This document shows, piece after piece, positions 2,505-64,000 of a stretch of 64,000 bases of DNA (position 1 is its first letter; each line of letters starts with the position of its first letter). Source of the stretch: Minisyncoccia bacterium (GTDB taxonomy: Bacteria; Patescibacteriota; Minisyncoccia; SW-4-49-11); the NCBI GenBank assembly GCA_044356325.1, contig JBIKWJ010000001.1:152992-216991 (forward strand). The letters run 5' to 3'. The notes under the pieces are model-generated. The model did no database searches. It was not told where the DNA came from and saw only the letters and a program-made list of their open reading frames with translations. Both the position numbers and the translations under genes were made by a program.

Positions 2505-2536
2505 TCACTTAATTGTGAATAAGATGAGATACATCG

Positions 2537-2745
2537 TAGATAAGTTGTGAGTTATGTAGAGGGTGACCTTTCAGTCACTTTTGTCCCCCTTTGGAGGGGG
2601 GAGCCTGAAAGGCGGGGGTGGATAAAATACAAATGTAAACTCTATCTACCTCCGGCCTAATGGCCACCTCCTCCCTGCCTACCGCAGGCAGGCAAAGGAG
2701 GACAATTTCTATAACAATTTACAGTTTTTAGGCTAATAATTTACA
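2537..2745 (-). mobile_element. GC-rich MITE-like repeat, copy A (reverse orientation, diverged, one TIR recognisable)
   Basis: About 55% GC in a roughly 30% GC genome. Shares the core cctgcctaccgcaggcagg and ccccc-tttgga-ggggg hairpins and the terminal aagatgagatacatcgtagata with copies at 11841, 28197 and 34291. Confidence 0.6.
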
Positions 2746-2807
2746 GCAACACTTTTTGCCTAAGATATCTTCATCTCATACTAAGTATATACAAAATATC
2801 AAAAATA

Positions 2808-2827: not shown

Positions 2828-2916
2828 GGAAGTGTGGCTGAGCGGTTGAAGGCGGCAGTCTTGAAAACTGTTGTAGGGTTACACCTACCAGAGGTTCGAA
2901 TCCTCTCACTTCCGCA
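2828..2916 (+). tRNA. tRNA-Ser (anticodon UGA)
   Basis: Cloverleaf readable by eye. Acceptor ggaagtg/cacttcc, anticodon loop cuUGAaa, long variable arm, T-loop GGTTCGAATCC. Confidence 0.85.
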
Positions 2917-2922
2917 TAAATC

Positions 2923-2960
2923 CCATATATTAGAATTTATTCTGATATATGGGTTTTTTA
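2923..2960 (+). terminator. Rho-independent terminator after tRNA-Ser
   Basis: Hairpin cccatatat...atatatggg followed by TTTTTT. Confidence 0.55.
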
Positions 2961-3100
2961 TTTGGAGAAGTGAAGGGAGCAATAGCATTGCTCCCGTGGG
3001 GATGAGAAAGTCGCAGCCCGGTGTGAGTTTGTGCTAAGCACAAGGCGAACACAGCGAGACGGGGTCGCGGAAATTTACCGTCAGGAAAATTATCTGTGAC

Positions 3101-3119
3101 CGAATCCTCTCACTTCTGC
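3101..3119 (+). repeat. Duplicated 3' end of tRNA-Ser(UGA), attR-like
   Basis: cgaatcctctcacttcTgc matches the tRNA T-arm/acceptor 3' segment with one mismatch, 184 bp downstream of the intact tRNA. The intervening DNA is GC-rich and hairpin-rich. Confidence 0.6.
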
Positions 3120-3202
3120 TGAAGTAAAAAGTAGATAGTTTTCTTAACTGTTTATACATCTTTTATTTTATATCTAATTTTCCCACGATGTATTCGTCCT
3201 AT

Positions 3203-3230
3203 TGAATAAGATGAGACAGATCGTAGACAA
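3203..3230 (+). repeat. Solo terminal inverted repeat of the GC-rich MITE-like family
   Basis: ttgaataagatgagacagatcgtagacaa matches the element termini, but no element body follows. Confidence 0.45.
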
Positions 3231-4848: not shown

Positions 4849-6054
4849 ATGAAATCAAAGATTAATCTCGTCATTATATCACATGCCTATGTCTATTCTG
4901 CCTATAGAGCTAAAATTGAGGCTTTATCAGAATATCATGATCTCAATATCACCCTCATTACACCGGAATTTGGATTAGAAGGTGGTGGACAAAAAGTATA
5001 TGCTGAGCAATATGAGGGTAAACAATATCACCATATTATATTATCAGGATATTTTACGGGGAAATTAAACTTTTTTGTATTCAAAAATCTCAAATCAACT
5101 CTACAATCTCTTAACCCAGGTATTATACTTTTGGAAGAAGAATATTGGACTCAAATTGCCGCTCAGGTGACATATATTACGAAAAGTTTCTTCCCCCAAA
5201 CCAAGCTTATATTATTATCACAAGAGAATATTTGTCATATTTGGGAAAAAGAGGCAGAAACTCTCTATCAAAAATTTCGCTATACTTCATTTCACTTTAT
5301 TGAGAAATATGTCCTATCAAGACTTGATGGGCTTATATTCCAATTCCCTGAAGTATGGCAAGATTTTGAAAATCGTGTGAATGCTCTAGGTTTCAAAGGA
5401 AAACGAGGTATACTCCCTCAACTTGGAGTTGATTATAATAGATTTGCTGATAATTCACCCAAATTACAAGAGATAAGAACAGAATTAGAGCTTGATGATA
5501 ATACCTTCATATATGGCTATATTGGGAGAATTACTCCAGAAAAAGGTATTGAAGATATGATTCATGCCTTTGAGAATTGGGATAAAAATAATACTAAACT
5601 CATTATTATTGGGAATGGTGATACTGAATATGTAAATCAAATCAAGCAACTGGTACAGACATTAAAACTTGATGATATTGTCATATTCAAAAATGCTATC
5701 CCCTTTGAAGATATTCCTGCTTATTTTCAATTATTCAATATTTCTCTCTTACTCTCTCATACCACGCCTATTTGGAAAGAACAATTTGGACGAGTTTTGG
5801 TAGAGTCTATGGCAGCTGGAACTCCCGTTATTGGTTCAGATAGTGGGGCTATTCCCTTAGTTATTGGGGATACAGGCTATATTGTAGCTGAACAAAATAT
5901 ACAAGCTATTAGACAAGCTTTAATAGAGACAATTGAGAATAAAAAGAAATATACTCTATTATCTAAGTTAGCGCAAGAGAGAGTAAACACAGAATTTTCT
6001 TATGAGGCTATTGCTCGTAAAACCTATAATTTTATTCAAGAGATTTATAAATAA
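4849..6054 (+). CDS. Glycosyltransferase, GT4 family
   Basis: 401 aa. C-terminal GRITPEKGIED...ESMAAGTPVIGSDSGAIP is the characteristic GT4 donor-binding region. Confidence 0.8.
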   Translation: MKSKINLVIISHAYVYSAYRAKIEALSEYHDLNITLITPEFGLEGGGQKVYAEQYEGKQYHHIILSGYFTGKLNFFVFKNLKSTLQSLNPGIILLEEEYWTQIAAQVTYITKSFFPQTKLILLSQENICHIWEKEAETLYQKFRYTSFHFIEKYVLSRLDGLIFQFPEVWQDFENRVNALGFKGKRGILPQLGVDYNRFADNSPKLQEIRTELELDDNTFIYGYIGRITPEKGIEDMIHAFENWDKNNTKLIIIGNGDTEYVNQIKQLVQTLKLDDIVIFKNAIPFEDIPAYFQLFNISLLLSHTTPIWKEQFGRVLVESMAAGTPVIGSDSGAIPLVIGDTGYIVAEQNIQAIRQALIETIENKKKYTLLSKLAQERVNTEFSYEAIARKTYNFIQEIYK

Positions 6055-11774: not shown

Positions 11775-11840
11775 AATTTTTTATTTTATACTATATCAAT
11801 ATATTAGCATATCATATCATATTGTCAATTAACATTATGA

Positions 11841-12125
11841 AATGAGGAGATCGTAGACAAAAGAGATTATTATACATTACTATCCTACCGGCCGTAGCTT
11901 TGTACAAAAAGTGTCCTCCTTTGCCTGCCTGCGGTAGGCAGGGAGGAGGTGGCCGTCAGGCCGGAGGTGGATAGAGTTCAGGTCTTTATCTTATCCACCC
12001 CCGCCTTTCAGGCTTCCCCCTCCTAAGGGGGACAAAAGTAATAATTCTTTTGTTACGACAATATATGCGACTGTAAGGTCGCCCCTACACAACTCATATA
12101 ATGTCTACGATGTATCTCATCTTAA
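11841..12125 (+). mobile_element. GC-rich MITE-like repeat, copy B (full length, both TIRs)
   Basis: Left end gagatcgtagaca and right end tgtctacgatgtatctc form imperfect TIRs. The body is nearly identical to copy D at 34291-34572. It sits between divergent promoters. Confidence 0.65.
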
Positions 12126-26195: not shown

Positions 26196-26816
26196 ATGAA
26201 ATCTATATTAGAAGCCCTCAATTGGCGATATGCCACCGACAAATTCTTAGATACTCCTATCCCAGAGGATATATTCCATACCATCATAGAGGCAGCGCGT
26301 CTCGCCCCTTCATCTATGAATTTTCAACCATGGAAATATATCTCTATACAATCTCCAGAAATTCGTAATCAAATATTCGAAGCTGGAGGAAAACAAGAAG
26401 CCATAAATGCTCCTACCCTACTCGTACTCACCATACCCAATATTCTCACTGCAGAAAATGTAAATAATGTTGTTCTCGCTGCCGCTAAAGCTCGGAATGC
26501 CGATCCATCTACTCTTGAGGGATATCGTAATATGCTACAAGGATTTGTAGACAGAACAACTCCTGAGAAATTCTTTGATTGGAGCCGTAGACAAGCATAT
26601 ATTTCACTCGGAATGCTGTTACTTGCCGCTGCTCAACTCGAAGTGGATGCAGCCCCTATGGAAGGGTTTGATGCCACGAAAGTAACCGAGATATTAGGTC
26701 TCAAAGATTATACCGCCGTCACCTTGATTGGACTTGGCTACCGCAGCCCTGAAGATGATCATCAAAGCTGGCCAAAAGTCCGATTTGATATGGAGGAAAT
26801 TTTAGAGGTGAGATAG
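26196..26816 (+). CDS. Nitroreductase-family flavoprotein
   Basis: 206 aa. N-terminal RYATDKF...ARLAPSSMNFQPWKY is typical of the NfsB/nitroreductase fold. Confidence 0.75.
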   Translation: MKSILEALNWRYATDKFLDTPIPEDIFHTIIEAARLAPSSMNFQPWKYISIQSPEIRNQIFEAGGKQEAINAPTLLVLTIPNILTAENVNNVVLAAAKARNADPSTLEGYRNMLQGFVDRTTPEKFFDWSRRQAYISLGMLLLAAAQLEVDAAPMEGFDATKVTEILGLKDYTAVTLIGLGYRSPEDDHQSWPKVRFDMEEILEVR

Positions 26817-26823
26817 AACCTAA

Positions 26824-26860
26824 AAAAGAAAGAGCTTATCAAGCTCTTTCTTCTTTTTAT
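26824..26860. terminator. Bidirectional rho-independent terminator
   Basis: agaaagagc-ttatcaa-gctctttct flanked by an A tract and a T tract. Serves the nitroreductase (+) and the tRNA-Ser region (-). Confidence 0.6.
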
Positions 26861-26862
26861 TT

Positions 26863-26889
26863 TGGCGGAGAGAAAGGGATTACGAACCC
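26863..26889 (-). repeat. Duplicated 3' end of tRNA-Ser(GCU) including CCA, attR-like
   Basis: tggcggagagaaagggattacgaaccc matches the tRNA T-arm and acceptor with a 1-nt indel. 171 bp separate it from the intact tRNA; the intervening DNA is GC-rich. Confidence 0.6.
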
Positions 26890-27059
26890 GTCGCAAATGG
26901 GATTTGCTCCCCTTTCCTATTTCGAATCTAAAACTTCCTTCAAGATTTCATACATCGCATGTATGATAGCAAAATCCCCCGTGCAGGAAGGCAGCGAGGG
27001 ATTTATTCCCGAGTGTCGGAAACCGTAGGTGTCCGAGACGGGGTTGGGGGGGGATTTTG

Positions 27060-27147: not shown

Positions 27148-27300
27148 AGAATTAAATTAACTATTATAGTTTACCTAAATTTTGATAATTTTGCAACTTA
27201 TTCCTATTGAAAAATTATAGAATTATTATAAACTTATAATTATTGATAGTTTACATTAAATCATAAAACAGGCATATTATCCCCCATTTTTATTCATCTA

Positions 27301-27782: not shown

Positions 27783-27825
27783 TTTATACTGATTTGTAAT
27801 TATTGATAATTTACATTATGAGATA
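27783..27825 (+). promoter_or_regulatory. Conserved 43-bp intergenic motif, copy 1 of 3
   Basis: tttatactgatttgtaattattgataatttacattatgagata recurs at 29454-29495 with 42/43 identity; a 22-bp core recurs at 27237-27258. Confidence 0.4.
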
Positions 27826-27847
27826 CCCTATTCCATAGAGTATATAT

Positions 27848-28135
27848 TTAATTTTTCTTTTTCTTGAGACGCTCTCTTTTTACCATCAAAAAAGTTCCAA
27901 TCCATGATCCAATAGCAAGGGGGAAAATATAAAGCCAGTTTTCAGTGTAATTAATGACTCCAAATGCAATACAAAAGTGTATAATTGAACCAACAGTAGC
28001 AGCTCTATATTCATTATAATTGGCAATATCTAAGGTATACTTTGCATAAAGTGCATCTATAACAATATATGCTACTAGAATTAGTAGCGCAATAAGTGGA
28101 TTAAATGTGCTTAAAGCTCCTATTATTGCTTCCAT
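27848..28135 (-). CDS. Small membrane protein
   Basis: 95 aa with 2-3 TM helices and a KKKKN tail. Has a conserved upstream motif shared with the gene at 30052-30420. Confidence 0.35.
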   Translation of the reverse strand: MEAIIGALSTFNPLIALLILVAYIVIDALYAKYTLDIANYNEYRAATVGSIIHFCIAFGVINYTENWLYIFPLAIGSWIGTFLMVKRERLKKKKN

Positions 28136-28196
28136 ATTAAGTGTTTTTTGCTATATTATAAAACTAATTCTAACCCATTTCTCCTATCCGTACAAT

Positions 28197-28490
28197 AGAA
28201 GAGATCGTAGACAAAAAAGATTACTATATATTATTAGCCTACCGACCATAGCTTATTACAAAAACTGTCCTCCTTTGGAGGAGGTGGCCGTCAGGCCGGA
28301 GGTGGATAGAGTTTAAGTTTGTATTTTATCCACCTCCGTCGCAAATAGGATTTGCTTCTGTGAAACCTCACGGTTTCCCAACCTTCCTTCACGGGAAAAC
28401 TCCCGTTTTCCCGACCCCTTTCCCAGACTTACAGTCTACCTTTCAGGCACCCCCTTCCTGCCTGCGGTAGGCAGGAAGGGGGACAAAAGT
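28197..28490 (+). mobile_element. GC-rich MITE-like repeat, copy C (left TIR only, with a nested ~105-bp insertion and a swapped hairpin module)
   Basis: Collinear with copies B and D, except for an extra segment at 28335-28439 and replacement of the ccccc-tccaaa-ggggg hairpin by ccccc-ttcctgcc-tgcggta-ggcaggaa-ggggg. Confidence 0.55.
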
Positions 28491-28530
28491 ATGTTATAGT
28501 TAAATCAATAAATATTTAATAAATTGTATT

Positions 28531-28731
28531 ATGAGCAATCAAGAACAAGTATCAGAACAAAGCACGGTAATTATAGGGAGCTTTTCTATACGCAATGATA
28601 TAAATTGCCCTGAATGTGGACTTCATCATATAGATAGAGATGATTGGTCAAAAAGACTACACAAAAAACATCTTTGTGAGCAATGTGGGCATATTTGGCA
28701 GCCTGAGGAAGGGTATAGTTTTGGGGTATAA
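28531..28731 (+). CDS. Small zinc-ribbon protein
   Basis: 66 aa. Two C-x2-C pairs (CPECG ... CEQCG) spaced as in a 4-Cys zinc ribbon. Confidence 0.35.
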   Translation: MSNQEQVSEQSTVIIGSFSIRNDINCPECGLHHIDRDDWSKRLHKKHLCEQCGHIWQPEEGYSFGV

Positions 28732-29420: not shown

Positions 29421-29453
29421 AACTTATATCAATATGTATATATTATATACCCT

Positions 29454-29495
29454 TTATACTAATTTGTAATTATTGATAATTTACATTATGAGATA
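29454..29495 (+). promoter_or_regulatory. Conserved 43-bp intergenic motif, copy 2
   Basis: Lies in the 90-bp gap upstream of the SDR gene. Confidence 0.4.
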
Positions 29496-34238: not shown

Positions 34239-34290
34239 ATTAAAATAAATTATATCATATATTGACAATTGTTGCAAAGCTTTTTATGAG

Positions 34291-34572
34291 ATGAGGAGAT
34301 CGTAGACAAAAGAAATTATTATACATTACTATCCTACCGGCCGTAGCTTTGTACAAAAATTGTCCTCCTTTGCCTGCCTGCGGTAGGCAGGGAGGAGGTG
34401 GCCGTCAGGCCGGAGGTGGATAGAGTTTAAGTTTGTATTTTATCCACCCCCGCCTTTCAGGCACCCCCTCCAAAGGGGGACAAAAGTAATAATTCTCTTG
34501 TTACTACAATATATGCGACTATAAGGTCGCCCCTACGTAACTCATATAATGTCTACGATGTATCTCATCTTA
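34291..34572 (+). mobile_element. GC-rich MITE-like repeat, copy D (full length, both TIRs)
   Basis: Near-identical to copy B. TIRs are gagatcgtagaca and tgtctacgatgtatctc. It sits between the msrA stop and the NUDIX promoter. Confidence 0.65.
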
Positions 34573-34577
34573 TTCAT

Positions 34578-35123
34578 TCACTTCCAATTCATATGCTTTT
34601 GCTCTCGAATTTGACAAGTTTTTTGTACAAATCCTTCACGTCCTGACCCAATACGATAATTTTGATAATGTTGTGGATTTTTCTCTGAATATTGTTGATG
34701 ATACTCTTCAGCCGGGTAGAATTCTGTTCTTGGTAATATATCTACTTGTATTGCTTCTGTATATATACCGGAATCATCTAATTCTTGTAATGTATCTTGC
34801 GCAATATTTTGCTCTAATTCATCTGAATAATATATTGCTGTTTTATAATTCTCTCCCCTATCTCCAAATTGTCCGCCATCATCAGTGGGGTCAATATGAT
34901 CGAGGAAAAATTGTGTTAATAATCGAAAATTTGTCTTATTCTCATCATATATTACCTGCACAACTTCGCGATGTTCAGTATTATGACTACTGACATCTTC
35001 ATAATTAGCAGTCTCAGCACTACCTCCCATATACCCTGATATGACATCCTCTACTCCCAGAGCCTGTCGTAAATCATGCTCTACGCACCAAAAACATCCC
35101 CCTGCAAATATTACTTCTTTCAT
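34578..35123 (-). CDS. msrA: Peptide methionine sulfoxide reductase A
   Basis: 181 aa with the N-terminal GCFWC active-site motif. Confidence 0.85.
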   Translation of the reverse strand: MKEVIFAGGCFWCVEHDLRQALGVEDVISGYMGGSAETANYEDVSSHNTEHREVVQVIYDENKTNFRLLTQFFLDHIDPTDDGGQFGDRGENYKTAIYYSDELEQNIAQDTLQELDDSGIYTEAIQVDILPRTEFYPAEEYHQQYSEKNPQHYQNYRIGSGREGFVQKTCQIREQKHMNWK

Positions 35124-45938: not shown

Positions 45939-46937
45939 TTAAGGGAGATCTCTAATAGGACCAGTACCTGTTGGCCAGACACAGTTAACATTTATATGGT
46001 AGTTACCATTATAATCACCATAATTATTACAAGTCTCAGTCCCCCCAGGTTGAAATCCTTGTATACTAGAGCCTGGTCCAGCAGGTACTCCCCATACAGT
46101 TGAACAAATAGAACTTATAACTCCAGGGTCAGTACAGGCACCCTCAAAACCAGTTGGACCTCCCGCACAAGTATCCGCATATCCTGAGTAAGCTGTATAA
46201 GCTTGAGTTAATTCACATTTCCATATACCACTTCTCTTAACTGCGCTATAAGCAATGCCTCCACTCTGTGTTGCACCATTACACGATGTCCGGCTTCTAA
46301 GATTGTAAAGTGTATTACATCTAATCTGTGCTTCTGGTTGAGTTAATATTGGTGTTGGAGTTGGAGTTGGTGTTGGTGTTGGAGTTGGTGTTGGAGTTGG
46401 TGTTGGAGTTGGTGTTGGAGTTGGTGTTGGAGTTGGTGTTGGAGTTGGTGTTGGTGGAGTTAAAGAATTATTTCGTGGCATTGTAGTTGATTGCATTGTA
46501 ACTGTATCTTTACCATCTACAGATTTGGCTGTAATAACTACAGTCACTATAGTTCCTGGGCTATTATTATTTACTGAACTACCATCCCCAGCCTTAATAA
46601 AAAATCTAATATCCTCAACGGTAAATACACTAGAATCAGTATAGGCATTACCTGACTTATTGATAATATTGCCAGCTTTTGTATATACTACATTTGCACC
46701 ACTTTGATCTTTAAATGATAATGCACCTGATGCATTAATACTAAGATTCGATGAGGTTCTCAATTCTTTGTCCATCACATTCAAAACAAATTGCACATTA
46801 TCTCTTACATTATCACTTTGTTGAGAATCTCTTTGATATTTGATAATATTAGTAATAGGTTGGGCTACTACCAATACAATAATAGATAATATACCGATTA
46901 CCACTGTTAATTCTGTTAGAGTAAATCCTTTTCTCAT
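45939..46937 (-). CDS. Type IV pilin-like protein with a (TP)n linker and a Cys-rich C-terminal domain
   Basis: Prepilin leader MRKGFTLTELTVVIG is a class III signal. About 25 tandem TP dipeptides. The C-terminal roughly 130 aa contain 10 Cys. Confidence 0.6.
   Translation of the reverse strand: MRKGFTLTELTVVIGILSIIVLVVAQPITNIIKYQRDSQQSDNVRDNVQFVLNVMDKELRTSSNLSINASGALSFKDQSGANVVYTKAGNIINKSGNAYTDSSVFTVEDIRFFIKAGDGSSVNNNSPGTIVTVVITAKSVDGKDTVTMQSTTMPRNNSLTPPTPTPTPTPTPTPTPTPTPTPTPTPTPTPTPTPTPILTQPEAQIRCNTLYNLRSRTSCNGATQSGGIAYSAVKRSGIWKCELTQAYTAYSGYADTCAGGPTGFEGACTDPGVISSICSTVWGVPAGPGSSIQGFQPGGTETCNNYGDYNGNYHINVNCVWPTGTGPIRDLP
46351..46462. repeat. Tandem repeat (ggtgtt/ggagtt units, about 9 x 12 bp) encoding the (TP)n linker
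   Basis: Perfect 6/12-bp periodicity visible in the DNA. Confidence 0.8.
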
Positions 46938-46953
46938 ATATTTAATCCGCAAT

Positions 46954-47478
46954 CTATTTTTTATTAATATCAAATAATTCCATATCTGCTGAATATATTT
47001 TGGTCTTATTTAAATTCAAGTTTCTTACTATAACGGTACTTTTAACTTTTATTCTATCTAGATTAACTGTATCCGATTGTACGGTAATATAGCGATAAAA
47101 TATAGTACCAGCAGTACCCAAAATATAACCATTATTGCCATCTTGTATTAAAGAACAGGTATTATTCCAGGTAGTTGTACTACAAGTTGAAGTTAAGCTC
47201 AAACCATTTTGAATATTCGTTTTATAATCAACTACATATTTACCATCAGCCAATCCAGCATTCCATACTGCCCCTGGGGTAGTGTCATTAAGATTACTTT
47301 GATATATGGCTCTTACTATCTCTAATCCCTCGGACATCAATAAATTAGCAGTATTATCATATTGCTTATCAAACTTAGCTTTAATAATACCTACCTGTAA
47401 ATTTAAAAGTGGAATAAAGGTAATTAATAATATTGATATTGCAACCAATGCACCTACTAATGTGGCTCCTTTTTTCAT
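46954..47478 (-). CDS. Minor pilin-like protein (non-canonical, lacks Glu5)
   Basis: 174 aa. MKKGATLVGALVAISILL hydrophobic N-terminus after a basic leader. Sits inside the pilin gene block. Confidence 0.45.
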   Translation of the reverse strand: MKKGATLVGALVAISILLITFIPLLNLQVGIIKAKFDKQYDNTANLLMSEGLEIVRAIYQSNLNDTTPGAVWNAGLADGKYVVDYKTNIQNGLSLTSTCSTTTWNNTCSLIQDGNNGYILGTAGTIFYRYITVQSDTVNLDRIKVKSTVIVRNLNLNKTKIYSADMELFDINKK

Positions 47479-63680: not shown

Positions 63681-63756
63681 AGAGTAAAACCAGAAATGGT
63701 CAAGGCGACTGCTCCCCGTGAGGGGTTAGTTGCTATCATTTTAGGTTTACGAGAAA

Positions 63757-64000
63757 CTAGAAACGGATGCCGGCGCGAAGCTTGGCGACAAGGCCATCAC
63801 CGGAGGTGCCCGAGTTGTACCCGAGAACACCTTCAGTATAGGCATTCTTGCCGATGCCGACCTGGAGACCACCGCCCACTTGGACATTGTGGTAGCTATA
63901 ACCGACCTCTCCTCGGACTTCCCCGAAGGGACGCAGCTGACCACTCTTGGTCAGATAATACCGGCCATAGCCATTGGCATAGGTTCCGGTATTGTTCACA
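63757..64000 (-). CDS. C-terminal fragment of an outer-membrane beta-barrel-like protein (gene continues past the window edge)
   Basis: 80-aa partial. Gly/Tyr-rich alternating pattern ending ...LRAGIRF with a terminal Phe. The segment is about 58% GC, against about 30% elsewhere. Confidence 0.35.
   Translation of the reverse strand, partial: VNNTGTYANGYGRYYLTKSGQLRPFGEVRGEVGYSYHNVQVGGGLQVGIGKNAYTEGVLGYNSGTSGDGLVAKLRAGIRF

Follow-up and report, generated by a model that had tools for sequence, protein, structure and literature searches.

A discrete, conserved hairpin module of 100 nt nested within a MITE-like repeat of Minisyncoccia bacteria

Several described systems of short repeats are close enough to the locus analysed here to be compared with it. 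REP/REPIN sequences are 20-40-nt palindromes with a 5′ GTAG that often occur as inverted pairs; they are accompanied by a RAYT gene and are moved by HUH Y1 transposases (RAYT). PATEs are palindrome-associated elements derived from IS200/IS605, whose classical members recognise one fixed tetra- or pentanucleotide as target and insert 3′ of it. In nested MITEs, of the cyanobacterial Nezha type or of plants, a short non-coding element lies within another short non-coding repeat, as it does at the present locus. The BIMEs of E. coli, the NIMEs and Correia elements of Neisseria and the BOX elements of pneumococcus are short intergenic hairpin modules that vary in number, order and orientation, are often co-transcribed with neighbouring genes and contain terminator-like parts. 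Rickettsia palindromic elements are frequently inserted in frame in protein genes, and the GC clusters of yeast mitochondria, which are 30-50 nt long, duplicate their target.

The window, as we call the whole stretch of DNA that was analysed, is 64,000 nt long, has ~33% GC and carries gene content typical of CPR bacteria, including type IV pilus genes, Mur ligases, glycosyltransferases and small hypothetical proteins. JGI metagenome contigs, among which one measures 252 kb, carry DNA identical to it, and related DNA is found in MAGs labelled Paceibacteria, Parcubacteria or Minisyncoccia, NCBI placing Paceibacteria as class Minisyncoccia. A GC-rich repeat of ~300 bp with imperfect terminal repeats (~AAGATGAGAnnnATCGTAGAC) occurs in the window in four copies, A to D (Table 1). 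Like the hosts of nested MITEs, it has terminal inverted repeats and shows presence and absence at an orthologous site: locus L024 (74% coding identity) holds at 5383-5770 a member of 390 bp in which both terminal repeats are present and the small module described below, M2, occupies the same internal position, and the orthologous window site at ~42528 is empty. This filled and empty pair indicates that the host repeat is insertion-like, and no target duplication was evident in the single comparison of L024 with the window.

The initial annotation described copy C as collinear with copies B and D except for an extra segment of ~105 bp at 28335-28439, and left the exact breakpoints to a pairwise alignment with copy D. 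We ran a gap-tolerant global alignment of copy C (28186-28500) with copy D (34280-34580), which contains a single clean 100-bp gap corresponding to window 28339-28438, flanked by sequence of 98-100% identity. The insert itself thus stands with its breakpoints now exact, and its length is corrected to 100 bp, as the outer tccg (4 nt) and c (1 nt) align with copy D. The extra 100 bp, hereafter M2, reads TCGCAAAT...CAGTCTA, with ...TTATCCACC[T/C]CCG as its left neighbour and CCTTTCAGGC as its right neighbour. Beyond this clean insert, copy C departs from collinearity with copies B and D in three respects: it does not have the 19-nt hairpin CCTGCCTGCGGTAGGCAGG in its usual place after TCCTCCTTTG, it bears that hairpin within the loop of its terminal hairpin (28457-28475) instead, and it is truncated past ...GGGGGACAAAAGTA, and so is without the right terminal repeat. 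A blastn-short search of the full window with the 100 bp as query returned an 18-nt match at 26891 and otherwise chance 9-14-mers only. With no other match in the window, the segment is not an internal duplication of element sequence, the outcome that would have spoken against foreign DNA, and we rejected its derivation as an internal duplicate of host sequence.

Table 1. Coordinates of the repeat copies, the M2 module and the tRNA-linked features in the window, with the evidence for each.
Feature	Position	Strand	Evidence
Host repeat copy A, inverted; empty M2 site 2613/2612	2516-2790	-	Repeat alignments
Host repeat copy B; empty M2 site 12003/12004	11835-12124	+	Repeat alignments
Extra tRNA-Ser(GCU) 3′-end copy, ...GGTTCGTAATCCCTTTCTCTCCGCCA, adjoining degenerate M2, then terminator hairpin	26866-26890	-	Alignment to L032, L017
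Internally deleted second M2, H1 joined straight to CCCCTTTCC	26888-26947	+	CM R1, 27.3 bits; alignment to L032, L017
M2-related domain M4, inverted relative to the 21-mer	26973-27056	-	blastn, 80-85% to L031, L022, L018, L014
Host repeat copy C; left terminal repeat and GC-rich hairpin core, right-truncated	28190-28491	+	Repeat families D3, D4, D9; alignments
M2 module	28339-28438	+	C/D alignment; CM R1 match 28336-28440, 127.8 bits, E 7e-33; homologues at ~24 CPR loci
M2 hairpin H1, GCAAAT-AGG-ATTTGC, core of the common 21-mer	28341-28355	+	Fold
M2 hairpin H2, GAAACC-TCAC-GGTTTC	28359-28380	+	Fold
M2 hairpin H3, CGGGAAAAC-TCCC-GTTTTCCCG	28392-28413	+	Fold
M2 right-end hairpin, AGACT-TAC-AGTCT	28425-28437	+	Fold
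19-nt micro-hairpin CCTGCCTGCGGTAGGCAGG in the loop of the terminal hairpin of copy C	28457-28475	+	No counterpart in L032, L037; fold
Host repeat copy D, complete, both terminal repeats; empty M2 site 34452/34453	34284-34576	+	Alignments

M2 folds into four separate hairpins (DNA z = -6.3 and -6.0 for the two strands; RNA z = -3.6 for the written strand). Two nucleotides separate H1 from the left end and one lies between the last hairpin and the right end; the unpaired C-rich tracts of the module are highly conserved. Across 19 M2 copies all six pairs of H1 are invariant (6/6), and in H3 95% of the cells are paired; the variants of H2 preserve pairing (AAACCT/AGGTTT and TTGAAACC/GGTTTCAA). 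In place of the right-end hairpin, other copies have AGACC/GGTCT or AAAGG/CCTTT, and three have none. Larger variation consists of a form with a 23-nt insert, of ‘long’ forms in which a ~115-nt domain (M4) sits in place of the third hairpin, and of stubs that contain H1 only, found in L019 and L029. The open reading frames that recurrently overlie M2 and the repeats are GC-rich artefacts, and a protein-coding role was therefore rejected.

The limits of the module are best seen where filled and empty sites can be compared. A listing of ATCCACCyyC sites resolves into three states, namely two empty backbones (type 1 and type 2) and the M2-bearing versions of both. The empty type 1 backbone, ATCCACCCCCG^CCTT[T/G]CAGGC... 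(^ marks the junction), is found in window copies A, B and D and in L022, and its filled form, ATCCACCyCCG^TCGC..GTCTA^CCTTTCAGGC, in window copy C, L032, L037 and L014. The empty type 2 backbone, ATCCACCCTCCCCC^TACGGGTAC, occurs at L023 54 and L036 10004; its filled form, ATCCACCCTCCCCC^GTCGC..GTCTAT^TACGGGTAC (...CCCCC^GTCGC..GTCTAT^TACGGG), occurs at L023 1128, with flanks near-identical to those of these two empty partners (same MAG). Directly 5′ of M2 there is always an ATCCACCyyCC sequence that forms the foot of a C-rich hairpin arm. Its left flank is nearly always CC[A/T]CC[C]yCC[C/G], with final bases that vary (...CCG, ...CCC, ...CCT, ...CAG or ...CAT) and a left junction that shifts by 0-3 nt, depending on whether CCG is present or absent. 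No terminal inverted repeat was found, the ends TCGCAAAT... and ...CAGTCTA not being complementary, and no target-site duplication, as filled and empty sites differ by the module alone within 1 nt; nor did the C/D and filled/empty alignments reveal homology between the two M2 ends.

The M2 termini differ by no more than 1 nt between two backbones with unrelated right flanks (CCTTTCAGGC and TACGGGTAC), which implies that at least one junction was made without homology, at a defined end. Taken together, the alignments show a discrete unit with the ends (G)TCGCAAAT...CAGTCTA(T), by all appearances a defined unit of insertion or excision. On the same comparison, purely homologous exchange cannot account for the junction between M2 and CCTTTCAGGC. 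The alignment fits either polarity, as precise excision from copies A, B and D would yield it equally.

These properties place M2 close to PATEs and to REP/REPIN sequences, with which it has in common hairpins near both ends, the lack of terminal inverted repeats and of target duplication, precise gain and loss, and insertion beside a specific sequence or structure; the combination of subterminal hairpins at both ends with neither a terminal inverted repeat nor a target duplication is that of a PATE. A GTAG-containing motif also recurs, in the host terminal repeat (CGTAGAC), in the complement of the M2 right end (GGTAGACT) and in the loop of the micro-hairpin (CGGTAGG). Compared with PATEs, however, M2 appears to have a C-rich target context rather than one fixed tetranucleotide, and no Y1 HUH or RAYT gene was seen among the open reading frames examined in ~330 kb of fragments. 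It differs from both systems in its four hairpins, in its highly conserved unpaired C-rich tracts and in being conserved across genera rather than species-specific, and from REP/REPIN sequences also in that it is 100 nt long, that its four hairpins are different from one another and that its GTAG-like motifs are not a 5′ tetranucleotide. With MITEs it shares being short (~100 nt), non-coding and multi-copy, but the inner elements of nested MITEs differ from M2, which is without terminal inverted repeats and without target duplication.

The initial annotation regarded the insert as a second, smaller sequence type and noted a second occurrence of its first 21 nt at the tRNA-Ser(GCU) insert. In the window the 21-mer CCGTCGCAAATRGGATTTGCT occurs only at 28336 and 26888, and 100 shuffles expect no such recurrence. 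When the search for this 21-mer was extended beyond the window to one genome per species, it found 27 loci, 24 of them from CPR MAGs (labelled Paceibacteria, Parcubacteria, Minisyncoccia or Saccharibacteria), several per genome and with the whole ~100-nt module kept. The three non-CPR loci are about what chance would produce; L020 is among these and nevertheless contains related modules. The covariance model R1 (CM R1), built from 19 M2 copies, gave 40 matches at E ≤ 1 in 264 kb, of which ~35 are strong, from at least nine Minisyncoccia (Paceibacteria) MAGs. It recovered one full M2 and one partial M2 in the window and none in 31 kb from the close relatives L033 and L034. M2 is foreign to the host repeat and indeed belongs to a second, smaller sequence type, with defined ends and an occurrence in many contexts and genomes. 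The 21-mer had no match in the viral collection, and we set aside a phage or plasmid origin on that result.

M2 copies are intergenic, ~30 of the 35 lie away from tRNA genes, and they are ~90% identical to one another, compared with 67-75% identity to the window for the coding DNA of the genomes that bear them. Identity is 91.8% within genomes versus 90.4% between genomes, copies do not cluster by genome, and subfamilies are common to several genomes. Conservation so far above that of coding DNA points, as judged from these alignments, to constraint or horizontal spread, and the ~90% identity across ~70% coding identity, together with the absence of within-genome clustering, is better accounted for by selection on a function or by horizontal spread than by a selfish repeat that evolves neutrally. 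As composites of short modules that can be exchanged and combined in various ways, these repeats are like BIMEs, NIMEs, Correia elements and BOX. They differ in showing no sequence kinship with them, in that the modules of the M2 system nest in each other’s loops, and in that M2 is ~100 nt long and ~90% conserved where genes are ~70% identical. Rickettsia palindromic elements and yeast mitochondrial GC clusters resemble M2 as GC-rich palindromic insertions in a small AT-rich genome that nest and that lie beside RNA genes, whereas M2, in contrast to the Rickettsia elements, keeps to intergenic positions. A full-text literature search found no description of such intergenic repeats in CPR, Patescibacteria or Paceibacteria, and we know of no parent transposon for M2 or for the host repeat.

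The recurrence of the 21 nt at 26888, judged by alignment, is a second and decayed M2 copy. L032 (7000-7180) and L017 (1860-2099) carry a full-length M2 at the site orthologous to window 26816-27058, and against these the window copy has a 54-nt internal deletion. In both loci tRNA-Ser(GCU) is followed by a terminator-like hairpin, an inverted and diverged copy of the tRNA 3′ end and a full M2 on the tRNA strand, and then, 3′ of M2, by a direct copy of the tRNA 3′ end, ...GGTTCGTAATCCCTTTCTCTCCGCCA (ending in CCA), and a terminator. This tRNA-linked unit is 98% identical between L017 and L032 and has a long closing stem (z = -3.6). In the window, in addition to the deletion, the place of the first hairpin is taken by an inverted M4 domain, a homologue of the one that enlarges the ‘long’ M2 forms. 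The resulting insert of ~190 bp (26866-27058) is bounded by a 25-30-nt direct repeat of the tRNA 3′ end, ...GGTTCG(T)AATCCCTTTCTCTCCGCC, and it contains no open reading frame, hence no integrase gene. L018 has a unit of the same design at tRNA-Asp (733-880), and L033 has the tRNA-Ser without the unit. ARAGORN and Rfam call the true tRNA-Ser alone here and detect neither a tRNA nor a tmRNA in the linked unit.

Recent activity, which the initial annotation had suggested, is not borne out for M2. In the orthologues of copy C in L032 (P_PACE2) and L037, M2 matches that of the window at every position (100%), and the cassette as a whole reaches 97-100% identity; M2 copies of one genome are no closer to each other than to those of other genomes; L014, with ~67% coding identity to the window, has a host repeat with both the left and the right M2 junctions of copy C, but a long M2; and the window holds one full copy only. 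Because M2 is identical in three orthologous C copies and the junctions are common to L014, the arrangement of M2 in the type 1 backbone is, on these comparisons, old, with no sign of recent M2 movement in the window. We also looked for a C orthologue that lacks M2. Identical-protein look-ups returned the same strain only and one metagenome scan a third filled copy, and the relatives reached through homologues of the SDR protein were without the whole 95-aa/C/66-aa cassette and not merely without M2.

The sole recent change seen here concerns the 19-nt micro-hairpin. A difference of 17-20 nt at its position is confined to the window lineage, L032 and L037 being without it, and the hairpin together with two small accompanying (compensating) changes turns the terminal hairpin stem into a perfect 14-bp helix (28450-28482). 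Elsewhere the same 19-nt hairpin is precisely inserted in hairpin loops, in either orientation, in several genomes that include L023 and L036, and it appears to act as a tiny mobile unit.

The repeats accompany small differences in gene cassettes between close relatives. Copy C lies in a cassette (27784-28729) between a gene for a 95-aa membrane protein and a gene for a 66-aa zinc-ribbon protein; the cassette is not in L034, is located between tRNA-Ser and a 147-aa gene in L032, and directly follows tRNA-Ser in L037. Copy D and msrA (PMSR) form a second indel (34278-35111): at the corresponding site L034 has instead a GC-rich module of ~60 bp, TTTTCCACCC...CCCCTCAAGAGGGG. Integron attC-like sites were considered, since the repeats travel with cassettes, and were rejected on the repeat length of 300-400 bp, breakpoints that do not consistently fall at the repeat and the lack of an integrase; a DNA-uptake sequence was rejected because the motif occurs only twice in 64 kb.

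Neither a transposase nor an integrase was detected among the 30 window open reading frames that were scanned. Locus L001, which overlaps the window in its middle part, shows none in its precomputed Pfam annotation, and the genes that recur beside M2 (RhuM, MazF and Dus) include none either. This is consistent with a non-autonomous element. The discreteness of M2, its ends, target context, age and conservation are demonstrated above; its mechanism and function are inferred. The reading we favour, with confidence slightly better than even, is that M2 is a small non-coding and non-autonomous insertion unit of Minisyncoccia that is structure-directed, mobilised in trans and nested in a MITE-like repeat. 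M2 would have entered a D-like backbone once, long ago, by structure-directed cut-and-join on single-stranded or hairpin DNA, and the enzyme would have been supplied in trans, putatively in the manner of HUH/IS200-type or REP-type elements. Copy C would then have inherited M2. The family may have diversified as small hairpin modules were swapped, gained and lost at loops and helix junctions, with the 19-nt hairpin as probably the latest such event. Modules in shuffled order and orientation indicate that recombination contributes too, and this reading and the three that follow are partly compatible with one another.

It is possible, if rather doubtful, that the repeats are mosaics of the BIME, NIME or BOX kind that need no dedicated machinery, with copy C as a recombinant of M2-bearing and M2-less members. 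Such shuffling could proceed by gene conversion, template switching or illegitimate recombination at CCTCC/GGAGG, CCTTCCT and CCGTCGCAAAT. The GCGACTGTAAGGTCGC hairpin and the TCCACCCCGTC..GGGG module do occur to the left or to the right of M2 and on both strands. Short repeated motifs are where the truncated or chimaeric copies of M2 are broken, namely the H1-only forms of L019 and L029, the variants with the 23-nt insert or with M4, and the tRNA-linked deletion form of the window, which is found in L020 as well. The perfected 14-bp palindrome at 28450-28482 looks templated, and the lack of a transposase in the DNA examined is as this explanation would have it. The junctions of copy C divide the evidence: the left one has CCG microhomology, but the right one has none. 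The sharing of termini between two backbones with unrelated right flanks, with its homology-free junction, also weighs against shuffling.

It seems unlikely that the repeats are primarily functional structured RNAs, that is, small RNAs or untranslated-region elements in which M2 is an optional selected domain and insertions survive in loops and helix junctions. The conservation of M2 above that of coding DNA, and its subfamilies across genomes, would be expected of such a domain, and insertions and deletions do lie in loops or between one helix and the next. Of 20 cases, 11 have both neighbouring genes antisense to the written M2 strand and two have both in the sense orientation, so that it is the opposite strand that tends to be co-oriented with its neighbours. 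The tRNA-linked copies accord with this antisense bias; they are co-oriented with the tRNA and have a tRNA-like ...CCA end followed by a terminator, in a unit nearly unchanged between L017 and L032. The opposite strand of the host repeat, at 28260-28284 (-) and at the matching place in copies A, B and D, has a CCTCC..GGAGG hairpin followed by ACAGTTTTTG with its T-run, which is terminator-like, and co-transcription of the repeats on the opposite strand is, from these orientations, plausible if unproven. In copy D the terminator-like strand directly follows the msrA stop codon.

On the other side, Rfam reported only five tRNAs above the gathering threshold in the 64 kb and nothing credible between 26700 and 28700 at E ≤ 10, and a known RNA family, a tmRNA or an extra tRNA at M2 was rejected on the results of Rfam and ARAGORN. 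Covariation is nearly nil: variation is too scarce for it to serve as proof of an RNA, double changes being confined to three pairs and helix 1 being invariant. The G-U (wobble) evidence is divided between both strands, modules occur in both relative orientations, and the hairpin signal is about equal on the two strands, as for DNA palindromes. A sigma-70 promoter belonging to the repeat was likewise rejected, since hand-picked TTGACA-N17-TATGAG sites were unsupported by the scan and the best site at copy D belongs to the NUDIX gene, as its promoter on the minus strand.

Least of all do we expect M2 to be sequence from the arm, or from beside the att site, of an element that integrates into tRNA 3′ ends, with the repeat-borne copies as secondary debris: direct repeats of the tRNA 3′ end flank M2 segments at tRNA-Ser(GCU) (window, L032, L017) and at tRNA-Asp (L018), the unit is missing at the same tRNA-Ser in the relative L033 and the tRNA-Ser-SDR region is a hot spot of gene-cassette variation, but most copies are not beside tRNA genes, no integrase is nearby, the viral collection gave no match and the dispersed copies have a consistent target context of their own.

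A broader proposal, improbable in our view, is that M2, the 19-nt hairpin and the host repeat belong to an undescribed Minisyncoccia system that writes small structured modules precisely into the loops or feet of hairpins, with the products staying nearly constant from genus to genus as functional RNA or single-stranded DNA domains and with some units mimicking a tRNA 3′ end. Under this proposal the mimicry could include the CCA, the long closing stem being formed by a copy of the tRNA 3′ end and its complement and followed by the terminator.

CPR bacteria have tiny, streamlined genomes, and M2 adds to them a conserved module of ~100 nt for which exact ends, a covariance model (CM R1), a target context and filled and empty sites are available. 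It is a candidate substrate for a hairpin-directed DNA enzyme and a candidate structured RNA more conserved than the genes around it. The 19-nt hairpins are gained precisely even between near-identical lineages, and they and M2 offer markers for strain-level evolution and for assembly breaks. Should the conservative reading alone be true, the locus would still be a tidy case of nested small repeats in a new lineage.

A few further features of the window and of related loci were observed. The interval from tRNA-Ser to the SDR gene is a hot spot for change in gene content, and a 43-bp AT-rich direct repeat, TTTATACTGATTTGTAATTATTGATAATTTACATTATGAGATA, at 27783-27825 and 29453-29495 brackets the cassette and the SDR gene; a weaker copy is present at 27223-27272, and the copy at 29453 resembles the SDR promoter region. 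At 2916-3130, tRNA-Ser(UGA) is followed by a terminator hairpin and a GC-rich segment of ~170 nt, after which its own 3′ end is partly repeated (CGAATCCTCTCACTTCTGC); the segment has a long closing stem (z = -4.2) and no homologue in any fetched locus. Just past it, at 3203-3229, is a solo host terminal repeat, TGAATAAGATGAGACAGATCGTAGACA. L029 (1480-4620), L009 and L025 contain three or four long composite GC-rich repeats between accessory genes (RhuM-family, MazF-like), which open with a common AT-rich leader, TTGTCAATAGTAGNCGTCAATTTGTAGTATGAGA. Within the window, 12-nt tandem units (GTTGGAGTTGGT...) at 46311-46468 lie in an open reading frame with an N-terminal pilin-type methylation motif (45939-46973, -), and the segment at 63690-63955, at the window end and within an open reading frame that runs off it, is unusually GC-rich (>55% GC).
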